Assembly: GCA_964016885.1 (NCBI GenBank)
Contig: CAXHJY010001390.1
Span: 62,001 to 126,000 of the forward strand
Origin: Eledone cirrhosa
Taxonomy: Eukaryota
Direction of reading: 5' to 3'
DNA: 64,000 bases
Shown here in pieces: positions 2,259 through 53,518 of this stretch; position 1 is the first letter of the stretch, and each line of letters begins with the position of its first letter. The notes under the pieces were generated by a model that saw only the letters and a program-made list of their open reading frames with translations, was not told the origin of the DNA and searched no databases. The position numbers were made by a program, and so were the translations under genes.

Positions 2259-4661
2259 TTAACTGTATACTTTGTGAAAAGTCCTATGGAATTTATGCAG
2301 GCAGATAGAAAACAAATCTGTACGTCTATTTATTATAGAATCTAGGTTAGAGATAATGGTAAATTTTTCATTTAGACAGAGATTACAGATTTTAGATAGA
2401 GAGCTGTTCAAGTATGAGGATGCAGAAGAAACCTTCTTCCAAAAGATGGTATATTTTATGTTTTTGTCTTTCAAGGACCATATGAGTTCTGAGAGAGCCG
2501 TGTTGGTTCTTTTAAGTTTGTATTTGAAAGATGAATGATGATTGTAGAGACGAGCTTTAAAAGAGGTGGAAGTGGAGCCAAAATAGGTGAAGGAATTGGT
2601 GCTAGTTATAACTTTACATTCATAAATTAAGTTTTTATCGAGACAATGGTTGTTGAGAGGACATTTATTTTTAATGCGGCAGTTGCAATTAGAGAGATTA
2701 TTAATGAGTGACCTAGTGTTATCTATAGAAGGAATTGGATTGGAGAAGTTGTTTGCGATAGGAATAATAGGAATAATAGTTTCTTGATTTAGAGTTGGAT
2801 TATGAACATTTAGCGAAGTTGTGTTTGACGTTGTATTTGGGTTTACAGAAGTTAGCCTAGGGTTTACAATGACGTCGGGAGTACTATTACTGTTATTATG
2901 AAATTCAATGTTGGAAGGAAGAGATTTAGTATTTAGTATGTTATTGTTGTGTTTAGAGATGATGTTGGAAATATTGGAGGATGTAGAATAAGAAAATTTG
3001 ATGGTGTGTTTGTTAAATATTTTACTATAGATATGTGAGGGAGGGAAGCATTTATTTAAGGCACTAAAAAATAATTTAGGAATATTGTTATTAATAGAGA
3101 TGGAGAAAGGAGCATTATACCAGATTATGTTTTTGTATCTAGGTCTTTTATTAAAATTATTGGAATGATCATGATTAATTATTCTACTGTAAGTTTTTCT
3201 AGAATTTGTTTCTTTACTATATTTGATTTTATCTGGATAGCCGGCTTTAGAAAGTGCGTTATTATAGTAATTGGCGTTAGCATCAAAGATGTTTTTATTA
3301 GAAGATATGTTAGATATTCTTTTTCCAATATTACTAACTATAGCATTCTTGATATTGGTAGGATGGTTAGATTTAAAGTTAACATAATTTAGGTTCTCAT
3401 TGTTTTTATGGTAAGGGTAATATAGGCCAGTGTCAAGATTAAGAGATACATCCAAGAAATTAGCTAGTTTGATACTATTATCAAATTCAATTTTTAGGTT
3501 ATGTTGGTTAAAGAGATTACGTATATTGTTCTTAATAATATTAAGGTTAACTATATTGCAATTTAGGATAGTAAAGAGTCCATCGTCACGATAAATTCCA
3601 CCGCGAAGTTGAGGAATTTTCCGACTCAAGGAGTTCAAAATGAAGATACCAATTAAATCAGTCAATTGGGATGAATCGGATGCTCCCATTGTGATGTCGA
3701 AGTTGTTAGAGGTATCGGCTCTGGTCCAATATTCGTTGTTGAACTCTAGGATGGTTTTACGTGCGGTGAGGATGATGTGAAGTTCATCTGTGGTGATGTC
3801 AGAATATTTAAGTGCGAAAGATAGAGCATTATTGAGAAGTGAAGGCGAAATGGAGGAATAGTAGCTGGCAATATCAAATTGAATAAATTTTAGTTTGTTT
3901 TTATTATCCAATTTGTTGAACCAGCCAATCACTTCAGAAGTACCAAACCATAAATTTAGGTTCAAAGAAGAGCAATTAGAACTAACCTGTGGGATAATTC
4001 TATCCAAGATGGCTTTACTAACAACCCCCAGATCAGATTTAGAGGGGGCGATTAATCTAACAGGTAGTTCAGTGCGAAAATTGTTTTTGTGATCCTTGAG
4101 ATTTATCCTCGGAGTTCTTGGGAGGAATGGTTCGGTCTTTATTTCAATGCCAAGTTTTGACATAATCTCAGAGGCTTCAAGGTTTATGTATTCTAAATTT
4201 TCATGGTTGGTTTTACGATACTTTTTCCTAAGTTCCTTTAGGATAAGGTTGTTATAATTATCCTTGGAAATACCATATAAATTATTGGTTTTGTCAGAGT
4301 GGACTAAAACATTTTTTGAGGAATTTAGGTTAGAAATTGTGTTCTTGAGATTTACAAGGTGCTCTTGTCCTTTGTAAGGGTATCTCTTGAATTTAAGATT
4401 TTTTATTATTTTAGTTAATTCTTCCTCGAATTGTACTAGATTTTTGTTGGAAGGAGGATTTCGTCTAGAATTAAATAGATGATCGAGGAAGTTATGTTCT
4501 TTGGTATGGAAGTTCCCTTTTAGGCGCTGGTCATAGAAATAGGCTGTCCATCTAAGTCTTCTTACGAAGGAGTCAGTTTTTTCAATAAGAAGTTTGGTGA
4601 ATTCAGATTTACCAGGTATAGGAATGTCTTTAGTTGAATTGGTTATGTTGTAATAATCCAT
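2259..4661 (-). CDS. PLE reverse transcriptase-GIY-YIG endonuclease (~800 aa, uninterrupted)
   Basis: N-terminal KDIPIP...RRLRW; RT motifs [22 protein letters not shown]; CNC-x5-CPL-x3-C linker; LIYEC...YFGST GIY-YIG; C-terminal CNLC...CLH. Start placed at MDYYN because the upstream part of the ORF call is mostly microsatellite (an alternative Met lies at 4688). Confidence 0.9.
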
Positions 4662-4724
4662 GTTGTAGAAGAAGAGGTAAAAAACCATCAAAAGGTATCC
4701 AATATGAGAGTAAGCGTATACATA

Positions 4725-4907
<183 letters not shown>

Positions 4908-5694
4908 CGTAGTTTAGAAAGCCACAACAATGTAGAGGGAAATCTCGAGGTAGGAAGTGAATGATAGATAGGAGAAATAGGAGAAAGTGAAAATTGAGAG
5001 AGACAAAGATGAAAACAAAACAAAGGTAGAAAGGTTACCGTAGTGGAGATTTAATCCCAATATTTCGGGCTCACGCCCATCAACGGGGGAAAGTTCCAAA
5101 AGGGGGGGAACAGGCTAAGCCGGAGAAAGTTGTGATGTCGTTAAAACAGGAATGCCGTTATGGGGAGAACATTTTTAAAAATTTAAATGAGGGAAAGAAT
5201 GCGCGTGCGCGTGATAGGCTGTGGCAAAAGCTACTGACCAAATGGGTTAAATCAAGAGGGTGCGCTAGCGTGTGAAAGCCGTAAAATATGTGTGTGTAAA
5301 TATATATGTGTGTGTAACTGTGTGTGTATATGTGTAAGTGTGTATATGTGTGACTCTGTGTGTGAAAGATAGTGGGCTGTAGAAGCTGGAAATCAAAGGG
5401 TGTGAAAGGTGGTAGTTTGTAAAACATGTGTGCGTGTATAAATATAGATGTGTGTGTGTATGCGTATGGGTATATATGTGTGTGTAACTGTGTGTGTATA
5501 TGTGTGAGTGCGTGTGTGTGTGAAAGATAGTGGGCTGTAGAAGCTGGAAATCAAAGGGTGTGAAAGGTGGTAGGTTGTAAAAACATGTGTGCGTGTATAA
5601 ATATAGATGTGTGTGTGTGTATGCGTATGGGTATGCATATACGTGCGTGTGTGTGAAAATAGCAGGCCGTAAGGGCTGTGAATGGTCACTATGG

Positions 5695-6757
5695 TTAAGT
5701 TAGCCATGTCAGCTCATTTCTCTCAGCCCGGTTGTTAAGTGGGGGTCTGAGGTTCTTAATAACAAGTGCTTCCTTTATCCTTAAGGATCCGATGCTGCGT
5801 TCAGTCGCTAGGACTGTGACCAAGGGTCTACCCTGTGGGTTTCCGCATTTAAGGATGTGTTTACGGAAGGAAGATGCGTTGGTGTTGATATGTTCCTTGA
5901 TACGAACATGTAGGGGTCGGATGGTGCTACCTATGTAAAACTTGTTACATTTATCGCATTGAATCTTATATACGACATAGGTGCGTAGGCAATCTGCCCC
6001 CCGTATCGGGCAGTTGCTGAGGGAACACGTCCCATCTGACTCGTCGGGTTTGTTGGAGAGGCATCTTCGCAGCGAAGGTCCTGTGTGGGCCAAATGTATG
6101 TCAAGTCCCTCCGTCCGTATGGCCCTGCGGATGGCGTTCGTGGTATATTCACTCAGGTGGGGGATTTTAAAGAAGCACCTGCTTTTATTTAAGTTTCTAG
6201 TGGGTGTCTGTCTATTGGGTCTGGGGTCTCTAATTCCGTTTATCAGTCGCTTGAGATATCTATTAGACTTGAGTAGATTACGGAATTGCGTGGTATGGGT
6301 GAGACCACCCATCGGGTCGCTGCATCTGTTAGTGATCCGTGTCAGTTCATTTAGGACATAGCCTCTCTTAGCGTTGTTGGGGAGGGCTGAGTTGTAATGC
6401 ACAAATAAGTCCGTGCACGCTGCTTTGCGGTAGAAGGTGGTGTTTATGTTTCCTTCTTCCGAGATGTTGATACGGAAGTCGAGGAGGGCGAGTGACCCGT
6501 CTTCTCCTGGGTGTTCGATGGTGAAATCGACGTGATGGTCAGTATCGTTGAAGATTTGGTGATTTCATTCGCCATCTCCCGGGAAGAAGTAAGTATCAGG
6601 ATGTCATCAACGTATCTGGAGTAGAAGGCGACGGCGTTGGGTTGGCAGGTATTGAGTGCCTTGCGTTCCAGGTGGTCCATGTACGAGATCGCAAGTATGC
6701 CGGACAGACTAGAGCCCATAGGTAGCCCAGAGATTTGTTTGTACGTGTGGCCGAGGA
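5695..6757 (-). pseudogene. Truncated, frameshifted PLE RT + GIY-YIG
   Basis: YKQISGLPMGSSLS and YSRYVDDIL in one frame; VVYKIQC..C...YIGSTIRPLHVRIKEH and EALVI..LRPPLN in another. Confidence 0.88.
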
Positions 6758-8935: not shown

Positions 8936-9017
<82 letters not shown>

Positions 9018-9255
9018 CATGCTACTGTACGTCTGTATACATATATGTATGTACGTATACATACATACTTACATTTAAGTAAGTGCCATACTAAGAGTGG
9101 GAAATGAAATTTCGTTTTAATTTTTTTCAACTTATCGTTTTCGGTATGCCTGACCGATTTAACTCACTCAATATGCAAATTAGGCTGCTCAGCCGTTAAT
9201 TTTCATAAGGAAATTATATACTTTCGAACGTTCAACTATGTGGCAGATGGGTATA

Positions 9256-9296
9256 CGGTGCTGATGATAGTTAACAAGCTAGAAACTAGTACATCG
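9256..9296 (+). ncRNA. Minimal type I hammerhead ribozyme
   Basis: cggtg CTGATGA tagtt-aaca-agcta GAAAC-ta-GTA catcg. Confidence 0.88.
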
Positions 9297-9447
9297 TTCC
9301 TGTGTCAGTGTTGAACAAAAAGGTGACGTGGTTGCCTTAACACCGTATGGCATAAATTCAGGCTGTTCAGTTTGTTTACAAACGAACAAAGCGGCGTTAT
9401 AATAAGCGTCCGCTAAACTGATGCGTGCATATATGTATGTGTACCTG

Positions 9448-9536
<89 letters not shown>

Positions 9537-9775
9537 GCATGCTACTGTACGTCTGTATACATATATGTATGTACGTATACATACATACTTACATTTAAGT
9601 AAGTGCCATACTAAGAGTGACAAATGAAATTTCGTTTTCATTTTTTTCAACTTATCGTTTTCGGTATGCCTGACCGATTTAACTCACTCAATATGCAAAT
9701 TAGGCTGCTCAGCCGTTAATTTTCATAAGGAAAGTATATACTTTCGAACGTTCAACTATCTGGCAGATGGGTATA

Positions 9776-9816
9776 CGGTGCTGATGATAGCTAACAAGCT
9801 TGAAACTAGTACATCG
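9776..9816 (+). ncRNA. Minimal type I hammerhead ribozyme (second monomer)
   Basis: cggtg CTGATGA tagct-aaca-agctt GAAAC-ta-GTA catcg, 520 nt after the first copy. Confidence 0.88.
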
Positions 9817-9961
9817 TTCCTGTGTCAGTGTTGAACAAAAAGTCGACGTGGTTGCCTTAACACCGTATGGCATAAATTCAGGCTGTTCAGTTTGTTTACA
9901 AACGAACAAAGCGGCGTTATAATAAGCGTCCGCTAAACTGATGCGTGCATATGTGTACCTG

Positions 9962-10027
<66 letters not shown>

Positions 10028-10238
10028 CATGCTACTGTACGTCTGTATACATATATGAATGTACGTATACATACATACTTACATGTAAGTAAGTGCCATA
10101 CTAAGAGTGAGAAATGAAATTTCGTTTTCATTTTTTTCAACTTATATATATATGTATATATATATATGTATATATATGTATATATATATATATGTATATA
10201 TATATATGTATATATATATATGTATATATATATATATG

Positions 10239-10269
<31 letters not shown>

Positions 10270-10460
10270 GTATATATGTATATATATATATATATGTATA
10301 TATTGGAATAAATGCTCTGAAATAGCGATATATATGTGAATATAGACATAGAATATTCGAAAATATTCTGTATGTTTATAATAAACATTTTGAAGACCTA
10401 ATCGCTATAGAATAGAATACGTCACGTATTACAATTAGATTCTCGATAAAAGCAAGGGAA

Positions 10461-10503
10461 GTAATCTACGCGTTTCATTCTTGTTAGAAATCTTCAGGAC
10501 TAC
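10461..10503 (-). ncRNA. Minimal type I hammerhead ribozyme
   Basis: Minus strand: gtagtc CTGAAGA tttct-aaca-agaat GAAAC-gc-GTA gattac. Confidence 0.88.
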
Positions 10504-10770
10504 ATATCCAGTGCTTTTATCGAGAATGACACAGCTAGAGACTTATAGAATACTTAGCTGTGTACAGGAACTGGTTTGAAAGAGCGGTTGCCGGTCCGGC
10601 AGAAATTAGAAATTGGAATAAATGCTCTGAAATAGCGATATATATGTGAATATAGACATAGAATATTCGAAAATATTCTGTATGTTTATAATAAACATTT
10701 TGAAGACCTAATCGCTATAGAATAGAATACGTCACGTATTACAATTAGATTCTCGATAAAAGCAAGGGAA

Positions 10771-10813
10771 GTAATCTACGCGTTTCATTCTTGTTAGAAA
10801 TCTTCAGGACTAC
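10771..10813 (-). ncRNA. Minimal type I hammerhead ribozyme (second monomer)
   Basis: Identical motif 310 nt away. Confidence 0.88.
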
Positions 10814-11140
10814 ATATCCAGTGCTTTTATCGAGAATGACACAGCTAGAGACTTATAGAATACTTAGCTGTGTACAGGAACTGGTTTGAAAGAGCGGTTG
10901 CCGGTCCGGCAGAAATTAGAAATTGGAATAAATGCTCTGAAATAGCGATATATATGTGAATATAGACATAGAATATTCGAAAATATTCTGTCAAGAATGA
11001 AACGCGTAGATTACTTCCCTTGCTTTTATCGAGAATCTAATTGTAATACGTGACGTATTCTATTCTATAGCGATTAGGTCTTCAAAATGTTTATTATAAA
11101 CATACAGAATATTTTCGAATATTCTATGTCTATATTCACA

Positions 11141-12808
<1,668 letters not shown>

Positions 12809-21243: not shown

Positions 21244-23347
21244 ATTTATTAACGCATGGACAGTTATATGACCTCCTTTTCAGCCGAGAGACATACCAAT
21301 ACATATTCAAGCATTGATACATATTCAAACATTGTGGGTCAACATTCATTACAGAATTTAGAGTGGCAGTACACACTTCGAGATTACATTTATATTAATA
21401 GGTACAATCAAAAATCAAAGATATAGGTTAAAGTACAACATGAAGATAAGTGGTTATATAGTGCAAATGTTATATGTGTGGCACGCATGTGTGTCTTGTT
21501 TATATAGTGTGGCAGAGAGATATGTGTGGTAGAGGCACTTAGGTAGGTAAATAAGAGTGTTAGGTTGGTAGATCTGGTGGCAAAGTCTTTATAAGATTGA
21601 TATAGTCTGTGTGTGGAGAAATATTATAAGCATTAAAGATAGTGCAAGCATTAAAAGTGTTATAAGTATTGGAGATGCACAGCGCAGGGATGTCAAGTAA
21701 TTCATGTACTTCGGCATTTTCATGGTCAAGGGAGTGTATATTTCGATTATATGCCTTTCACATAATCCACGATAATCCAGTTAGAGATCGTAGTCTGGTG
21801 TTCTTTAGTTCGATACAGGAGGTTGTTACGTTTCGAGAAACGCCATTGAATACCGGAAGTGTGTGTGTGGCTAATGGGAGTTAATGCATGCGGGGAGGTA
21901 ACTCTGGGGTTTCTATATCTAGCCATTAAAATGTGTCCCAATATAGACCCTAAATTCTATGGTGAGGTGCACCTTCCAAGAGAGACTTTTAAAGCATAAA
22001 GTGTACTAACTATAGAGTAGTTTAACTAAATTATGCTGAAGGTGATCATATTATTATTAAGGTGGATTAACCCATCTTAAGGTGCTACAAATGGAAATTA
22101 TAGATGATGAGCGAGGATTCTAAATTAATGATCTCTGTGGTTGTAGTCTGCTCATATGACCAGGCGCGGTGATTGCAGGATTGCTTCAGGACCCAATGAT
22201 CTCTGGTAAGATCTGGGTCATCGCTTGCTACATTGGATGTCGAAAGATAATCGTCCCCAGGCAGGCCAAAGGTCAATCCGCAGTCCTCGGGACCCCTCTC
22301 TGACCGTCAGATCATCCATATACGTACAACCCGCACGGCAGTTGCATTGCATTCACTCACTGCGCTCAGCAGCCCGGTCCTACTGGTCAACAGCGCTACT
22401 CGATTAAATCATTTTACATCTGTCTAAGGAAGGTGTTTCCTCTGCCCAACACCATCCAACCGATCAATTCATGCTCAAATTACCCTTAGACCGGTGTGGT
22501 GCCGTCCAAGTGGGTGGATGTTGTCACACCTGCCGTAGAGGTATAAATGGGTATTTTCCCTGCGAAGGGTTCCAGAGGGATGTCGTTGTTTGTGTTATAA
22601 TGGATCAGCTAGTGTTGGGTATGTAGTATAGGGTGTGTCTCTGGTGTTTGATGCTAGATGTGGTGTTAGGTTCCAGTCCGACATTGCTATATATAGGGCT
22701 TAACGTTTTGGAAGGAATGTCTGAGGCGGTGCTGGCAAGTTGCAAACACCTCAGATTTTTTGTTAAGTAGGTTACGGTTGGAGAAGATAATATTGTGTGT
22801 CTCTAGTATACAGAGATTACAGAATTTATTAGGTGGTTTGTACGAGGTCGCGCTGCCTATCACTTCCCATTTGAGTGTGTATGGTTTATTTTTAGATTTT
22901 AGATAGTGTATGTAGCTAGAAAGTGAGGTGGAGTTGGCTAGGCTGTGCTTTTTGAACGAGTGGATGTGCGAGTTATATCTGATTTTGAAGCAGTTAGAAG
23001 TGGAGCCTACATAAGTTTCTGAAGAGTTATTAGTCGTGACTGTGCATGAGTATATGACATCCTTGGTTAGGCATTTTTTATCTAAAGGGCAGGTTCTATT
23101 AGCTCTACAGTTACAATTATTCTGTGCGTTAGTTCGCTGGTTATAATGCAATGCGGAAGTCTGTGTGGTGGATATAGGGTTTTGGGTGTTCGGGTTGGCA
23201 ACCCTGGTGTTATTACTTATACTAGTGTTATTTCTATTGTTACTGCCGTTGCTATTGTTGCTTGCTACAGTGGTATTTAGAGGGTTTGCATCCCGTTGTG
23301 ATTTTGTTTGTTGGAAGTAAGAACTAATTTTACTATTATTGCTGCTA

Positions 23348-25751
23348 GGAATACATATGAGAAATTGCTGATCAACAGTGTAAATTCATTTATCAATAGA
23401 GTGAGATGGAGGACATTCCATTATGATAGAAACAAATCTAACAACTTGAATAATACTAACAATTTTGACTCCTTCGGCTTTAAAACCTTTAAAAGCCCCC
23501 CTCATAACACTCTACTTAACTCCTTTGAAAATGACCTAGTTAAACTAGTTAAGAACATTAAATACAATAAGCACCATATTAGAAGCAACACCTTCTTAAA
23601 CAAACTTAACACTTCTATTAGTGGATTCAAAACTAGTAATAAAATTATTGTACACGCAGATAAAACTAATAACATATACAGCCTAGATTATATTACTTAT
23701 AGAAAGTTTATATATAATGAACTACATAAAAGCTACAAAAAAACCACCTTGAAAAACTTAGAAGATATTAATGTAGAGGGTTATAATATAGTGTCTAAAC
23801 TAGGACTACAGAGGCATACACAACCTTTCACTCCGAACCCCCTAGATTCTCTCTGAAGGACCATAAGGAGAACTTCATCAGCAACCCCACGATAAGACTT
23901 ATCTGCCCTTCCAAGTCCGACATTGGTATTATCAGCAAGAAGATTTTGGATAAAATCATCCCACAAATTAAACACAAGATACACCTTAAACAATGGGGAA
24001 ATACGGGTGAAGTAATTGAATGGTTTAAGGATATCAAGAATAATAAGAACAAAAAATTTATTCAATTTGATATCAATTCATACTACACCTCTATTTCCCC
24101 TATCCTATTAAATAAGGCACTTATCATGGCCATGACCAATAGCGACCTGACTAGAGCCCAGGTTGATGTCATCCTTGCGGCCCGTAAAACCATAATCACC
24201 TTCGAGGACCAACTATGGACACGCAAGGATACGCACAACAACTTCGACATAACCATGGGATCTAGTGACTCGGCGCAGGTCACTGATTTGGTCGGCCTAT
24301 ACCTCCTCAATGAAATCCATAAAGACCTCCCTTACCTCAACGGAGGTTTGTACCGCGATGATGCACTTCTACTCATAGAATATAAAAAATTTAATATAGA
24401 AAGAACTAGAAAACAACTGCATAAGACATTCAAAAACTTTAACCTTAGTATCACCATGGACAAAAACACTAAAAATGTTAACTTCCTAGACGCCACACTA
24501 TACCTAGACTCAAAAATATATACACCTTTCCATAAGCCTAATGAGAAACTTATTTACGTAGATACCAAGTCTAATCACCCTAGATCAATATTAAACTCTA
24601 TCTCTAAGGGGGTGTCCAATAGAATCTCTAGTCTGTCCTATGACGCAAACATATTTAGCAAAAACTCACAATATTACAATCAAGCATTAGCTAGCTCCGG
24701 CCATAATATAGAAATTGAGTTCCTACCTAAGAAAACACATAGCTACAACATAATCTCGCACAACATGTCCATGAGGAAATCTAATAATAGGAATAGCAAC
24801 CACAAGTACACCAAAGCGGAGGGTGCCACAGGAAGTAACCATTACCATGGAAACTACTGTGAGGCCTTAGGAGGAAGCAACACACCAAACACTAAAAGCA
24901 AAAATAGAAGAAGAAATAATACATTTTTCAACCCTCCTTTCAACCTAAATGTCTCCACCAACATACCTAGGGCTTTCTTCTCACTACTAGATAAAAACTT
25001 CCCTCGAGGACACAAGTACCACAACCTCTTAAACAAAAACACCATTAAAATCTCATACTCTACGACGCCTAACTTAGCATACCACATAGCTAGCAGCAAT
25101 AATAGTAAAATTAGTTCTTACTTCCAACAAACAAAATCACAACGGGATGCAAACCCTCTAAATACCACTGTAGCAAGCAACAATAGCAACGGCAGTAACA
25201 ATAGAAATAACACTAGTATAAGTAATAACACCAGGGTTGCCAACCCGAACACCCAAAATCCTATATCCACCACACAGACTTCCGCATTGCATTATAACCA
25301 GCGAACTAACGCACAGAATAATTGTAACTGTAGAGCTAATAGAACCTGCCCTTTAGATAAAAAATGCCTAACCAAGGATGTCATATACTCATGCACAGTC
25401 ACGACTAATAACTCTTCAGAAACTTATGTAGGCTCCACTTCTAACTGCTTCAAAATCAGATATAACTCGCACATCCACTCGTTCAAAAAGCACAGCCTAG
25501 CCAACTCCACCTCACTTTCTAGCTACATACACTATCTAAAATCTAAAAATAAACCATACACACTCAAATGGGAAGTGATAGGCAGCGCGACCTCGTACAA
25601 ACCACCTAATAAATTCTGTAATCTCTGTATACTAGAGACACACAATATTATCTTCTCCAACCGTAACCTACTTAACAAAAAATCTGAGGTGTTTGCAACT
25701 TGCCAGCACCGCCTCAGACATTCCTTCCAAAACTTTAAGCCCTATATATAG
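23348..25751 (+). pseudogene. Naiad RT-GIY-YIG ORF, slightly 5'-truncated, one frameshift near 23840
   Basis: FINRVRWR, FIQFDINSYY, MGSSDS, LYRDDA, CNC-x5-CPL-x3-C, VIYSC..YVGST, CNLC..CQH. Confidence 0.9.
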
Positions 25752-37671: not shown

Positions 37672-38797
37672 GTCGTTTCTGAATTTGTTTAGCAAGATTC
37701 TTTATCTGAAATCGTGTGTTGAAACCGATATTGTTATACTTTGGGAGGGTCATGTTGCCAATAAGAAACACACGCACCAGTTGCTTTCACTTCAATTTAT
37801 TATATATTTATAAATTTATGAATTTACAAGTTTACAAACTTCTAAATTTCTGGTTGGTTGGTTGGTTCCACAACCAGATAGTTGTTTATATATATAGTCA
37901 TAGTCCTTCGTCACAACTCTGTGACCTCTTCAGTGACTGGGGATTCCTTTCTTCGTTTCTGTGCCTTTCCTTTCTTCTATCCTACGCCATTTTGTTTCTG
38001 TGTGTGTGTTGTGTGCTCAGTTTGCGCATGCGCCACATCCGGGTGTCTGTGTGTGTTTGTGTTCATTTTTCTATTTTTTCTATTTATATTTTTCTCTATT
38101 TGTTTATTTATTTATTTATTTATTTATTGTTGGTTGGTTGTTTGTTCTATGTGTGTGTGTGTTTTCATTTTGTCCTGTGTGTGTTTTCAATTGTAAGTTG
38201 TTTGTTCTATGTGTGTGTGTGTTTTCATTTTGTCCTTAATTGTAAGTTGTGATGTTGCTGTTCCACTCATATTTTCTATTTAATTTTGGTTTTAATTCTT
38301 TTATGCTTATTGCCTCTGTAATTTGCCTAAACATTGCGTCTTTTCTGTGTGTGGATTCTATTTTTATTTCTATGCTCTCTAATCTACCCCTGTGTTCTAT
38401 CTTAGCATGTTGGTAGAGCACAGATGATTCTTTATTATCTTGGAGGTCTCGCCAGTGTTCATTTATTCGTTCCCCTATACTACGAGCTGTCTCACCTATG
38501 TACACTATATTTTTGTTTCTACATTGTCCTTCAGTACATCTTATGCTATACACTACATTTCTAGTTTTACAGTTAATATGGGGGCTTATTTTACAGGTTA
38601 TACATTTCTTATCTATACATGAGGGTCTTTGGAACGGGTATGTCTTGCTAATAAGTGTTTTTACGGAGGAACCAGGTCTTTCTACTATCTTAATATTGAG
38701 ATTATGTTTATTTAGGGCCCTTCTAAATTTGTAGGCTAGTTCGCCTCTAGGGGTTGTATTGATGAACATTATTGATGAACATTGTATAGATAAGAAA
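37672..38797 (-). mobile_element. 5'-truncated PLE (non-Naiad, possibly Neptune-like), GIY-YIG end plus pLTR/tail
   Basis: 38236-38797 encodes [12 protein letters not shown]...[17 protein letters not shown]...EAISI...PKLN; HHR in the UTR; homologous to the 51600-53519 element. Confidence 0.88.
37896..37938 (-). ncRNA. Minimal hammerhead ribozyme variant
   Basis: Minus strand: agtca CTGAAGA g gtcaca-gagt-tgtgac GAAGG-a-CTA tgact (GAAG instead of GAAA). Confidence 0.65.
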
Positions 38798-42109: not shown

Positions 42110-43789
42110 TCAAGGCGGTTGATTTATCGTAGGAGTGTCAATCCAGTTACAGATCAGATGCGATTTCAGATGAGGACAGCATCTGAAGATCTCAGTCTTA
42201 GAGTTAAGGCAAGCGGAAGTGTCTCTCAAGTTTAGCAAAATCCTATACTTTTCTGTGGTACACAAAGAACAATTCTTTGTGCCCCTTTGGTACTCCCTCG
42301 AATGGTCTAATATAGACCAATCAATAGAGTACGGGATATTACTATCCTTGAGATCCCATACCTTACTTGCGAGGGCCGTTGATGTTCGTTTATCTGAGTG
42401 TTTAAAAGAAGCGACATGTGAGTAAAATCTGGTTTTAAACCTGTCCTGGGTCATACCGACATATCGCTCGCTTCTGGCTGGCTGGTTGTTGATAACTGGC
42501 GTTATTTTAGCCTCATAAACGACAGATTTTGTGTTACATTTACCCTGCAATGGGCATTCATCCGGCTTCCTGCAACTGCATCCTGGATTTATCCTCGTAC
42601 GGTTTGAACTGGTGATTTTGGACTTCATGGATGGGCAACAAGAGTAGCTGATCTTAACTACATTCCTATTAAAAATCTTATAATATCTATGAATAGGAGG
42701 AAAATGTTTGTCTAATAGTTCAAGGAATTTCCTTCCTACATTAGTTTTGACATTTAGAGAGAAGGGGGGTGTGAACCAAATAATCTTCCTTTTCCTGTTA
42801 TTATGGTTAGTTTTAGGGGGGGGGAGTAGGTAAATAAGAAATATTTTCTGTAAAACCGCTGTTCTTAAGGGCTTTATTATAATAAGGGGCGGCTTTATTA
42901 AAAATGTCTATAGACGAAGATAAGGTAGAAATCCTACGGCTAATGTTAGGAATAAGATTATTAAAAACTATAGGGGGATGGCAAGACTCTTTGTGTATAT
43001 ACCTAAGATTTTCATTAGGTTTATAATAGGGTTTAAAAGAGGCAGTAAGTAGATCAAGATTAATATCAAGAAAGTTAGCATTAGTAAGGTTCGTATCTAT
43101 AGTAATTTTAAGGTTAAGATTAGCAAAAGTACTAATTAAATCTTTACGGAATTTATCAAGATTATGGCCATTGGTGGTATGAGAAACTGCTAATCCGTCA
43201 TCACGGTATAAACCGATATTATGGGACGGAAATTTCTCTTTGAGTGTGTGGAGAATGAATAATCCTACTAAGTCGCACACATCCGCACTGTCATAAGAAC
43301 CCATTGCAACATCGAAAGAGTTTTCAGGGTTTGACTTTTTAACCCAAATATTATCATTAGTAAAAAGTAAAGTTTTTCTACCATGAAAGATAATGTCCTC
43401 TTCTAATTTGGAGATATTAATGAAGGGTCTTGCAAAATCTAAGGCTTTAGTTAATAAGGAAACAGTAATAGAAGGGTAAAAATCGACAATATCAAACTGG
43501 GTAAATCTAAACTTATTTTTACCTTGTATATTATTGAACCAAGAAATAACAGAGGAAGTATTTAGCCACTGTGAAAGGACAGTGTTAGTTCTAATTTGGA
43601 GAATTATTTTTCTTAAGATTTTCTTACTAGCAAGGCCAACCTCGGATTTAGCCGGGTTAATCAGTCTACAACTAGGTCGATTAGTAAAGTCCAATTTATG
43701 GTCTTTAAGGGTAATATATGCTTTACGCTTAGCTAAGCTTTCAATCCGGTTATCTATTTGTAAAGAACTAGCTAGTTCTTTAGCTTCTT
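42110..43789 (-). pseudogene. Naiad RT-GIY-YIG, truncated and frameshifted near 42760-42820
   Basis: ITLKDHK, FTQFDIVDFYP, MGSYDS, LYRDDG, CSC-x5-CPL-x3-C, VVYEA...YVGMT, CSLC...CCPH. Confidence 0.9.
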
Positions 43790-44681
43790 CCAGGATGCAG
43801 TTGCAGGAAGCCGGATGAATGCCCATTGCAGGGTAAATGTAACACAAAATCTGTCGTTTATGAGGCTAAAATAACGCCTGTTATCAACAACCAGCCAGCC
43901 AGAAGCGAGCGATATGTCGGTATGACCCAGGACAGGTTTAAAACCAGATTTTACTCACATGTCGCTTCTTTTAAACACTCAGATAAACGAACATCAACGG
44001 CCCTCGCAAGTAAGGTATGGGATCTCAAGGATAGTAATATCCCGTACTCTATTGATTGGTCTATATTAGACCATTCGAGGGAGTACCAAAGGGGCACAAA
44101 GAATTGTTCTTTGTGTACCACAGAAAAGTATAGGATTTTGCTAAACTTGAGAGACACTTCCGCTTGCCTTAACTCTAAGACTGAGATCTTCAGATGCTGT
44201 CCTCATCTGAAATCGCATCTGATCTGTAACTGGATTGACACTCCTACGATAAATCAACCGCCTTGAACTCCTTCTCTGCTCTTTACTTTTGCTACGGTTT
44301 TTATTTTGCTGCTTCTACCTTCTGTACTCTTGTATATTTAAAATTTTTTTTTTTTTCTCCCTCACCTCCCCTTATATTTTTACCTCCTCTTAGCCCCCCC
44401 CCCATATATTCTTTTTGTTTTGCTCTTCACATACCTATGTGTATGTGTATGTATTTTTGTGTGTGTATATGTATATGTGTACGTATATGTTTGTGTATGT
44501 ATATGTATGTGTATGTATGTATGTATATGTATGTGTATGTATATATATATATATGTATATATGTCTGTATATATATGTATATGTATATATATATATGTGT
44601 GTATGCGTGTCTGTATGTGTGTATATATTTGTATATTTGTGTGTGTATATGTATGTATATGTGGATAAACCAGGCCTTTTT

Positions 44682-50625: not shown

Positions 50626-50967
50626 GCCATCCGGAACCTGTTTATAGAATTCTGTCTGCCCTTGTTACTCTAAAAACATAGATAAATAAAAATAAAAATA
50701 AACTATAGCTTTGTAGAATTAGCTTTTAATGAATTCCCTTTTCTATCAACCAATGACCTGCACCCATCCCACTCCCCACCCTCTCCTACCACTTGTAGAG
50801 ACCTATAAATACCATATTTATTTTTTGATACCCAGATTCCTGATGATTTCTAATGAATGAAACAGTTCTAGTCCTGTAGAATCTCATCTATATTAAAACT
50901 GTTATACTCTGCTATGTATTGAGTAACTTACTTACTGTGGTTACCTCCGATTCAACCCGGAATAACG

Positions 50968-51518: not shown

Positions 51519-51604
<86 letters not shown>

Positions 51605-51873
51605 ATATTTGGGGAGGGTCATATTTGCGTAATATTGCCAGAATTAATAACAGAACACACTCACTGTTTGGTTGGTTTTCGCTTCTCGCTGTCTTTTATA
51701 TATATATATCTGCGATCTAACTTACTCGGTCCTCAATGTTGCCATTGACTGACCGGCGGTCAAAAATAAAATAATACAGATACAATATAGACAAACACAT
51801 ATATATATAGTTTACATAAATCTTTTGTTGCACATCTGCAACATCGTCAGTGGTGTTATATTCATTGTTCCTC

Positions 51874-52953
51874 CTGGAAAGCATCCAGCAGATAGCTAAT
51901 TCCATACACCAGAGTATAACTGTAACTATAGACTTCCCTTCCAAACACCCTAACAATAGACTACCTGTATTAGACACAGAACTCTGGATTAACACTATAG
52001 ACGAGAGAGCCCAAATTCTCCACTCACACTATGCTAAACCCATGGCCTCCAAATACCTGATACTCAAAAACTCAGCAATGTCCAGTAGTGCTAAGTTTAA
52101 TATTCTGATCGCAGATTTGGTACGAGTGATGAAGAATGTGTCCAGCATGTGCGACCCAACAGAAATGGAAGGACACATCCAACACTTCATCAACCGCATG
52201 CAGTTCTCTGGCTACAACCAAAGAGACAGAGTCAGAGTATACGAAGGAGCCATGGAAAAGTATAAGACCCTCATAGAACTGGACATGAAAGGAATTTGCC
52301 CACTATACAGGAGCAAATCATGGAATAGCTTAGATAGGGCTAGACATAAGATAGGGAAGGCCACATCATGGTACGACAACCAGAGATATCAGAGTGTCAT
52401 GTTTGTGGACGCCACCCCTGGAGGGAAATTAGCTAACCAGTGTAGAAAGGCCCTGAGAAAGACCCACTTAAAAATAAAGGTGGTAGAAAAGCCAGGAACC
52501 ACCATAAAATCCCTGATCAGCAAAACCTACCCTTTTAAGAAAACCCACTGTACCAATAGGAAATGTATCATATGTAAGGTGAACCCCCGGATAAACTGTA
52601 AAACTAGAAACGTAGTCTATAGCATAAGATGTACAGAGGGTACTTGTAGAAACACGACAACAACATACATAGGTGAGACAGCTCGTAGCATAGGTGAAAG
52701 GATAGACCAACACTGGGGGGAACTAAAAGGACGAAAAAACGGGTCAGTACTATACGAACATGCTAGACAACATCATGACGGTAACATAGACAACATAGAA
52801 ATTAGAATAATATCTAAACATAGGAATGACCCAGCAGATAGGCAAATCAGAGAGGCCAGTGAAATAGAAATTAGAAGACCAAAGCTAAACAGAAAGAATG
52901 AGTGGAACAACAACAACACCCAAACAAACAACACTGACCTAAGAGAAGTATAA
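51874..52953 (+). CDS. PLE RT C-terminus + GIY-YIG endonuclease (5'-truncated, open)
   Basis: [57 protein letters not shown]...PKLN. Confidence 0.85.
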   Translation: MESIQQIANSIHQSITVTIDFPSKHPNNRLPVLDTELWINTIDERAQILHSHYAKPMASKYLILKNSAMSSSAKFNILIADLVRVMKNVSSMCDPTEMEGHIQHFINRMQFSGYNQRDRVRVYEGAMEKYKTLIELDMKGICPLYRSKSWNSLDRARHKIGKATSWYDNQRYQSVMFVDATPGGKLANQCRKALRKTHLKIKVVEKPGTTIKSLISKTYPFKKTHCTNRKCIICKVNPRINCKTRNVVYSIRCTEGTCRNTTTTYIGETARSIGERIDQHWGELKGRKNGSVLYEHARQHHDGNIDNIEIRIISKHRNDPADRQIREASEIEIRRPKLNRKNEWNNNNTQTNNTDLREV

Positions 52954-53203
52954 ATAAATAAGTAAATTAAATTAAATAAAATAAGATAAATAAATACATA
53001 CACAAGCACATAAACACACACTAGTCACCCAGCAGACACAACACTATACACACTAGTCACACATCACACACGCAAACGCATGCGCAAAGAAGACAAAATA
53101 AAATAAGATAAACAAACAAGCAAACAAATAAATAAATATATAGACGGACTGAACAAAAAAAATGGCGTAGACATACAACACAACAGGAGGAACAATGAAT
53201 ATA

Positions 53204-53248
53204 ACACCACTGACGATGTTGCAGATGTGCAACGAAAGATTTATGTAA
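53204..53248 (+). ncRNA. Minimal hammerhead ribozyme (mutated mirror copy at ~51810-51856)
   Basis: CTGACGA t gttgca-gatg-tgcaac GAAAG-at-TTA; stem I weak. The inverted copy has GAAA>AAAA. Confidence 0.65.
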
Positions 53249-53518
53249 ACTATATATATATGTGTTTGTCTATATTGTATCTGTATTATTTTATTTTTGA
53301 CCGCCGGTCAGTCAATGGCAACATTGAGGACCGAGTAAGTTAGATCGCAGATATATATATATAAAAGACAGCGAGAAGCGAAAACCAACCAAACAGTGAG
53401 TGTGTTCTGTTATTAATTCTGGCAATATTACGCAAATATGACCCTCCCCAAATATAACAATATCTGTTTCGACACACGATTTCATATAAAAAACCTCGCA
53501 AAACTAATTCATCGCCGC

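Follow-up and report, generated by a model that had tools for sequence, protein, structure and literature searches.

Two-armed, head-to-head insertions of a non-coding 310-nt hammerhead retrozyme in Eledone cirrhosa point to probable dual priming by a Penelope-like element on one RNA

Animal non-LTR retrozymes are tandem, non-coding units of a few hundred nt and low G+C content that each carry a type I hammerhead ribozyme, have long target duplications and a self-paired fold, and co-occur with Penelope-like elements (PLEs); Cervera and de la Pena 2020 (PMC7229834), in whose work circRNA was shown, proposed PLE mobilisation from that co-occurrence. Xenopus retrozymes have likewise been argued to be non-autonomous PLE derivatives (Li, Clavereau and Pollet 2026, 10.64898/2026.07.22.740005). 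PLEs themselves typically have an inverted copy of their 5′ part and, at one of their two ends, a tail of 30-40 bp (PMC8557442, PMC3846280), and a purified PLE protein nicks and extends both strands, starting at two internal sites that bound the tail (PMC11167929). In Chlamys, non-autonomous PLEs such as MRC1 form multicopy head-to-tail insertions in microsatellites (PMC8557442; a Chlamys pair also appears in PMC9977147). In the accessible text of these papers, to which all our comparisons are confined, two questions are left open: what machinery inserts animal retrozymes and which template it uses, and how the inverted arms and tails of PLEs arise.

Here we describe a locus of Eledone cirrhosa that touches on both questions. 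By every feature testable here, its 310-nt family is an animal non-LTR retrozyme as that class is described in PMC7229834, PMC7761336 and 10.64898/2026.07.22.740005: the tandem units fall within about 150-450 bp, each carries a hammerhead motif (below the Rfam cut-off), they are non-coding with G+C below 50%, their target duplications exceed 4 bp (12-16 bp), and autonomous PLEs co-occur, namely a young intact Neptune-like family and Poseidon-like and Hydra-like ORFs. Whereas the retrozymes of PMC7229834 were described as head-to-tail arrays, the insertions here are nearly always head-to-head arms with two fixed ends. The Xenopus argument drew on co-distribution and homology to PLE pseudo-LTRs (pLTRs); ours, by contrast, draws on the insertion signature, and the PLE families sampled contained no homologous pLTR. 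EN+ PLEs are similar in their head-to-head arms, one-end tail, (TA)n targets and internal initiation with little homology, but contain an RT/GIY-YIG ORF where the ORF-less arms here are multimers of the 310-nt unit; in the in vitro reactions of PMC11167929 the start sites were the same for both strands, but the two ends of a single insertion here nearly always differ. The insertion of multicopy units into microsatellites is shared with the non-autonomous Chlamys elements, which have 3′ sequence in common with their autonomous partners; most Chlamys lack canonical hammerheads (PMC8557442); no 3′-sharing partner of the 310-nt family was found in the PLE families sampled. The first-pass annotation had called the element viroid-like, a likeness to hammerhead viroids and satellite circRNAs that stands for its size, rod-like fold and hammerhead and fails in that the unit is genome-encoded with a ribozyme in a single polarity. 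Our literature searches turned up no account of retrozymes inserted as head-to-head arms of which one end is short and the other tailed, although supplements might contain one. We read the locus, with a probability of roughly 0.7, as a two-armed head-to-head insertion of a non-coding 310-nt non-LTR retrozyme, made by a PLE from one, probably circular, RNA.

The window (the whole 64,000-nt stretch analysed, contig CAXHJY010001390.1, positions 62,001 to 126,000) consists largely of nested retroelements in (AT)n, which also lies on both sides of the 10302-11139 element (Table 1). The tandem part is exact and comprises two full 310-nt units plus 69 nt of a third; the two full monomers, whose identity had been noted before, match at 310/310 positions. 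The unit is non-coding, with a longest ATG ORF of 30 aa when a fourfold tandem is translated. Over 162 nt, the inverted segment (10992-11147) is 98% identical to the unit, and it merges into (AT)n near 11140; the G of the right duplication copy explains the single mismatch of that copy to the unit, at q136 (q positions count from the predicted cleavage site in RNA sense). The final AT of the left duplication copy overlaps end site B; the window shows the B end at the left and the A end at the right. This target duplication is weakly marked, its 12-mer occurring 14 times in 10000-11300 and a 15-nt alternative fitting as well. The 17-nt tail stretch between the end sites is almost invariant across sister families and may be the element that the PLE protein recognises. 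Because the inverted arm lacks the CUGANGA half and contains just the 3′ half of a hammerhead, the complete ribozyme motifs of the locus number two.

Table 1. Features of the 10302-11139 insertion with its flanking duplication, and further PLE ORFs of the window (window coordinates).
Feature	Position	Strand	Details
Main arm	10302..10991	-	2.2 exact tandem units; 3′ end leftward at site B (q165), 5′ end q96
Monomer 1	10303..10612	-	310 nt, 34% G+C, ATG ORFs of at most 30 aa
Monomer 2	10613..10922	-	same sequence as monomer 1
Inverted arm	10992..11139	+	q294-310 then q1-131; 3′ end rightward at site A
Head-to-head (5′-to-5′) junction	10991..10992	.	q96 joins q294; exact overlap absent
Probable target-site duplication, left copy	10292..10303	+	12 nt of AT microsatellite with one G
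Probable target-site duplication, right copy	11140..11151	+	same 12-mer; adjoins right end
Site A	10328..10335	-	internal AUAUAUAU, q132-139; could pair with an (AT)n target end
Tail stretch between end sites A and B	10313..10329	-	17 nt; from family alignment
Hammerhead 1 with enclosing 16-bp helix	10439..10527	-	helix arms 10439-10454 / 10512-10527; motif scan and folding
Hammerhead 1, stem I	10503-10498 with 10466-10461	-	
Hammerhead 1, core CUGAAGA	10497-10491	-	
Hammerhead 1, core GAAA	10476-10473	-	
Hammerhead 1, stem II	10490-10477	-	U.U pair at base
Hammerhead 1, stem III		-	minimal, palindromic
Hammerhead 2 with enclosing helix	10749..10837	-	predicted cleavage 10777/10776
Further PLE ORFs	2259-4913, 23302-25751, 42110-43865, 5695-6564, 38236-38790		three Hydra-like, one Poseidon-like, one Neptune-like

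The hammerhead is a type I motif found on the minus strand only. Its predicted GUA cut lies between 10467 and 10466, in agreement with the site proposed in the first-pass annotation (about 10466/10467), and the perfect 16-bp enclosing helix described there is present and recurs 310 nt on; no perfect inverted repeat of the unit is longer than these 16 bp, while 60 base shuffles gave at most 10 bp, with a mean of 7.9. Two further hairpins that had been called are both found, the first of them imperfect, with a 2-nt bulge. The linear unit folds with z = -5.2 (0/100 shuffles as stable) and the circularised unit, a fold proposed as a check at the outset, with z = -4.6; in the predicted circle stems II and III hardly form (pair probabilities 0.15-0.18 and 0, respectively). 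With its CUGAAGA and the U.U at the base of stem II, the window variant is non-canonical and is predicted to fold poorly as a monomer. By analogy with axolotl ribozymes, in which a U.U at the stem II base and a palindromic minimal stem III each occur too (PMC7229834), it would work as a dimer. At the Rfam gathering threshold there is nothing in the window, and the window variant is without any hammerhead hit; sibling variants score 23 and 25 bits on Hammerhead_HH9, for which the cut-off is 52. L136 and L141 represent a 311-nt subfamily in which one additional C, two bases past the cleavage site, replaces a G.U pair in stem I by G-C and leaves a bulge.

When 20 sister-family copies are compared, 28 of the 63 named pairs change on both sides, a count inflated by the relatedness of these copies; the two-sided changes cover stems I and II, two hairpins and 10 of 15 pairs of the enclosing helix. 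None of 500 shuffles scores as high and slid controls give 6-10 pairs, controls that are lenient because the structure was drawn from the same sequences. Families that are 62% alike thus show covarying hammerhead helices, which implies that the fold has been selected. Two findings from other systems weigh on the other side: of nine dimeric Xenopus retrozymes assayed in vitro just one cleaved (10.64898/2026.07.22.740005), and a PLE could insert in vitro without cleavage by its hammerhead (PMC11167929).

Searched with a 35-nt ribozyme pattern, the 3.0-Gb assembly gives 8,767 exact matches, and none with the reversed control; 815 of the matches are the window variant and 3,744 a variant with CUGAUGA and a paired stem II base. 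We estimate 700-1,000 nearly identical insertions of the 310-nt family, extrapolating from the 12 clusters that the initial 53.5 Mb of C1 contain, with about 8 motifs in each. Only 68 unit-private variant calls were made in 276 full units (0.08% per base), which indicates that the expansion is very young and bears out the earlier suggestion of a young element. Several older sister families of 305-322 nt, first met in the flank of L046 and about 62% identical to the 310-nt family, persist without an ORF. One of them, scored by eye, shows the A+B pair of ends in 13 of 55 loci, the rest being one-armed, eroded or odd. Two older-sister arrays (L200 and L201, G000:C2 near 208.9 Mb) are long, diverged and head-to-tail, with at least 18 and at least 12 units, and behave like satellite. 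The unit was also found in sequencing runs of unspecified kind under four organism codes. Runs X2, X3 and X6 each have it as one closed contig of 340 nt (310 + 30) at low depth; these were not counted as circRNA, because a high-copy tandem repeat yields such a contig from traces of genomic DNA too.

To describe the insertions we assembled 68 loci of the family: the window, the 38 top matches to the window unit, and the first 12 and 17 further clusters on C1. Two that adjoin assembly gaps (L019, L143) were dropped, leaving 66 scorable loci, and 57 of these are two-armed and head-to-head, their 3′ ends pointing outward and nearly always into (AT)n; the PLE-style inversion proposed from the window alone is thus the usual arrangement. 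Wherever both strands occur among the matches listed (the first 100, in three motif searches), the order is minus then plus. The outer ends fall into two classes, site A at q127-139, with its internal AUAUAUAU, and site B at q164-172, 32-37 nt beyond. Fifty-four of the 57 two-armed loci have one end of each class, none has A/A or B/B, two combine A with a near-B end (q154, q159) and one combines B with an odd end, so that site A ends one arm in 56/57; among the nine one-armed loci, eight end at A and one at B. Marked target duplications in eight loci picked by eye measure 12, 16, 14, 15, 13, 12, 12 and 12 bp. Where the target is not pure AT they overlap both ends; within uninterrupted (AT)n they cannot be read. 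Next to the ends, bases of the target often stand in place of those of the template (131C>T at site A, 168C>A at site B), and L026 and L028 repeat short stretches of B-end sequence, both as would be expected of priming sites. Terminal sequence, interleaved with (AT)n, is reiterated at the left end of L028, the right end of L026 and in sister-family loci L078 and L081, resembling repeated abortive priming by a telomerase-related reverse transcriptase.

The inner junctions lie anywhere in the unit, mostly with 0-3 nt of overlap. Most are asymmetric, and few are near-palindromic (L010, L020, L035). None of 90 computed arm 5′ ends comes closer than 5 nt to the cleavage site (the seven values of q288 being extension artefacts), and copying therefore runs through it; a cleaved linear monomer as template is disfavoured by this lack of a pile-up, 344 of 371 junction reads being exact and 22 carrying one common locus-wide insertion. 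L1-style twin priming with collision was rejected as well, because the arm 5′ ends are spread over the whole unit and not near A and B. Both arms exceed one unit in 29/37 loci, and an arm can reach about 19 units. No LTR-internal-LTR layout occurs in the 68 loci and no tRNA gene within the 64-kb window. The inverted arm, the one-end tail and the AT targets match PLE hallmarks, from which we infer integration in trans by a PLE.

Mobilisation in trans had been suggested from the window, and its non-autonomous part is upheld: beyond the absence of coding capacity, 53 locus records show no RT or GIY-YIG ORF in the unit or abutting it. A PLE frame occurs in the flank of 13 of the 53 records, the nearest at 112 bp, and none (0/53) adjoins the element, which is hence not always attached to a PLE ORF; such constant attachment was what the first-pass annotation had named as refuting its reading. 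The Hydra-like calls in the window rest on DKT and CxCX5C motifs; Pfam gives weak GIY-YIG matches in 2/6 window ORFs and none in the 1,217-aa frame of a Neptune-like element (represented in the window at 51600-53510), which has an asparagine-rich insert and belongs to an element with a minimal hammerhead.

Our search for an autonomous partner covered a small part of the genome's PLEs. The lineage profile matched no PLE terminus in any of three sets, namely the window, 64 loci drawn from three PLE families, and 50 GIY-YIG loci, the last yielding just independent retrozyme insertions or fragments. The autonomous Neptune-like PLE is very young (4,137-bp unit, intact frames of 1,216-1,217 aa), and a truncated copy lies at window 51820-52953. 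In 20 of its loci (L171-L190), chosen for being paired, 15/15 two-armed loci with both ends in view have one short and one tailed end, at unit positions 244-249 and 292-307, the end rule seen in the 310-nt family; as a partner it was rejected, having a 43-60 nt tail and no homology to the 310-nt unit. The element at 50626-50967, whose hammerhead stem II at 50834 had been likened to the one studied here, is abundant, young and pLTR-like, with a long upstream region containing a microsatellite (L039-L050). It looks like the pseudo-LTR of a Hydra-type PLE, and at L049 the pLTR-like sequence runs on into a Hydra-type ORF. The stem II likeness exists but is weak (24/28 nt, E = 0.019) and does not extend beyond the ribozyme core, the element having no homology to the whole-unit profile. 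Its inverted partners stop 61-67 nt before the main end is reached, and this spacing, with homology confined to the core, led us to reject the Hydra-type pLTR as partner. Poseidon-like loci were set aside for want of a lineage-profile match. Variants of the tail 13-mer gave 257 matches (control, 7), and the 20 examined as possible PLE partners were all older retrozyme relatives without an attached ORF.

Further hammerhead-like cores lie in the window at 1230, 40232, 46185, 49653 and 61310. A second hammerhead repeat occupies 9015-9960 and 10025-10142, with cores at 9261 and 9781 (520 nt apart) and a unit interrupted by (AT)n; the repeat or its relatives also lie at L264:2700-3264 and in the flanks of L072 and L074. 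Its ribozyme region matches the profile of the 310-nt family weakly (E 0.001-0.03), and the L264 relative is also head-to-head, with a similar hairpin before CATATATAT. This repeat may use the same PLE partner as the 310-nt family.

Variants within and between arms bear on the template. The first 12 C1 loci represent about nine haplotypes, and among the loci examined no two-armed locus has arms of differing haplotype. Of 29 loci whose selection did not depend on identity to the window unit, with uniqueness judged against the 67 loci examined, 12 have a locus-unique variant fixed in every unit, on both arms in 10 of them. Such variants are what a single-unit bottleneck, predicted by a circle, would leave in sequence, and one donor array active per cell could mimic part of the pattern. 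At L226, 204C>T occurs solely in the outermost full unit of both arms, a pattern that a monomer circle cannot give and that calls either for fold-back copying or for two or more units in the template. Some arms contain a variant several times over (L001, L016, L020, L145, L146), but these recurring variants are not strictly periodic, which indicates that array length is partly a matter of DNA-level duplication or assembly; a multimeric circle behind them was rejected, as the variant is missing at expected positions and never occurs on the other arm. Of the other unit-private variants, 0/30 are common to both arms in register (two shared rows of 32 were set aside as a locus haplotype).

We propose the following sequence of events. 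The arrays would be transcribed and their hammerheads would cut unit-length RNA to be ligated into a circle, the ribozymes probably acting as dimers because stem III is a short palindrome. A PLE protein would bind the RNA near the conserved tail and nick both (AT)n strands 12-16 bp apart; one 3′ overhang would pair with AUAUAUAU at site A, and the other would start at site B, 32-37 nt downstream, with little pairing. The starts at about q129-131 and q163-166 correspond to the 32-37 nt tail. Both ends would then be extended round the template for a variable number of units, the two cDNAs would join by 0-3 nt of microhomology, and some arrays would later change length through DNA-level duplication. 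In this scheme PLE-type dual priming is the part we hold with good confidence; the circular template is probable but less certain. That the insertions are fossils of twin-primed rolling-circle reverse transcription, in which a dimeric Penelope enzyme works on one circle from two different fixed starts, one for each target end, we put forward tentatively.

The template could instead have been an uncleaved linear multimer read from an existing array and mobilised by a PLE, with hammerhead and circle as bystanders and the long arrays made by DNA-level duplication. The unit-private variant of L226, in register on both arms, fits such a template, as do the arm-restricted repeated variants if they reflect DNA-level block duplication, the weak-looking ribozyme of the window variant, and the finding that RNA left unprocessed serves as the main PLE substrate in vitro (PMC11167929). 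A linear multimer would need a separate bottleneck to put locus-unique variants into all units of both arms at 10 loci, however, and it is opposed by the 30 other unit-private variants, none of them shared in register, and by helix covariation across the 62%-alike families with the selection on the fold that this implies; we consider it rather unlikely.

Dual priming itself could be replaced by fold-back of the first cDNA (or antisense self-priming), with the endonuclease resolving the intermediate at the tail. Self-priming on the antisense strand and tail resolution by the endonuclease are published proposals (PMC3846280, PMC8557442), and fold-back would account for identical arm haplotypes, the L226 pattern and the few near-palindromic junctions. 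We find it improbable all the same: junctions are mostly asymmetric, A- and B-ended arms are the longer equally often (17/37 loci), B ends show reiterated starts and target-derived mismatches, and both sites are initiation sites in vitro (PMC11167929). It is very improbable that the family is a PLE-derived satellite or orphan pseudo-LTR, spread as DNA or always within a PLE and lacking an RNA stage of its own. Homology to pLTRs is known for Xenopus retrozymes, for which tandem amplification on a local scale has been proposed (10.64898/2026.07.22.740005), and the core resembles the pLTR hammerheads of this genome's Hydra-type PLEs; yet the loci are dispersed and every one has a target duplication and truncation points of its own, none of the 53 records adjoins a PLE ORF, and ORF-less families of the same size class have persisted.

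The class of element is already known, and the value of the present family lies in the mechanism exposed by its unusually clean insertion record, whose ends, target duplications and locus-private variants allow statistical scoring of both questions raised at the start. For PLE assays in vitro, the 310-nt RNA would also offer a minimal substrate. If twin-primed rolling-circle reverse transcription is the true account, the insertions would be direct genomic evidence for retrozyme circRNAs as a transposition template; a general rule, one short and one tailed end, would explain both the inversion and the tail of PLEs; and this retrozyme lineage would have evolved as a standalone structured RNA without a detectable parent pLTR.
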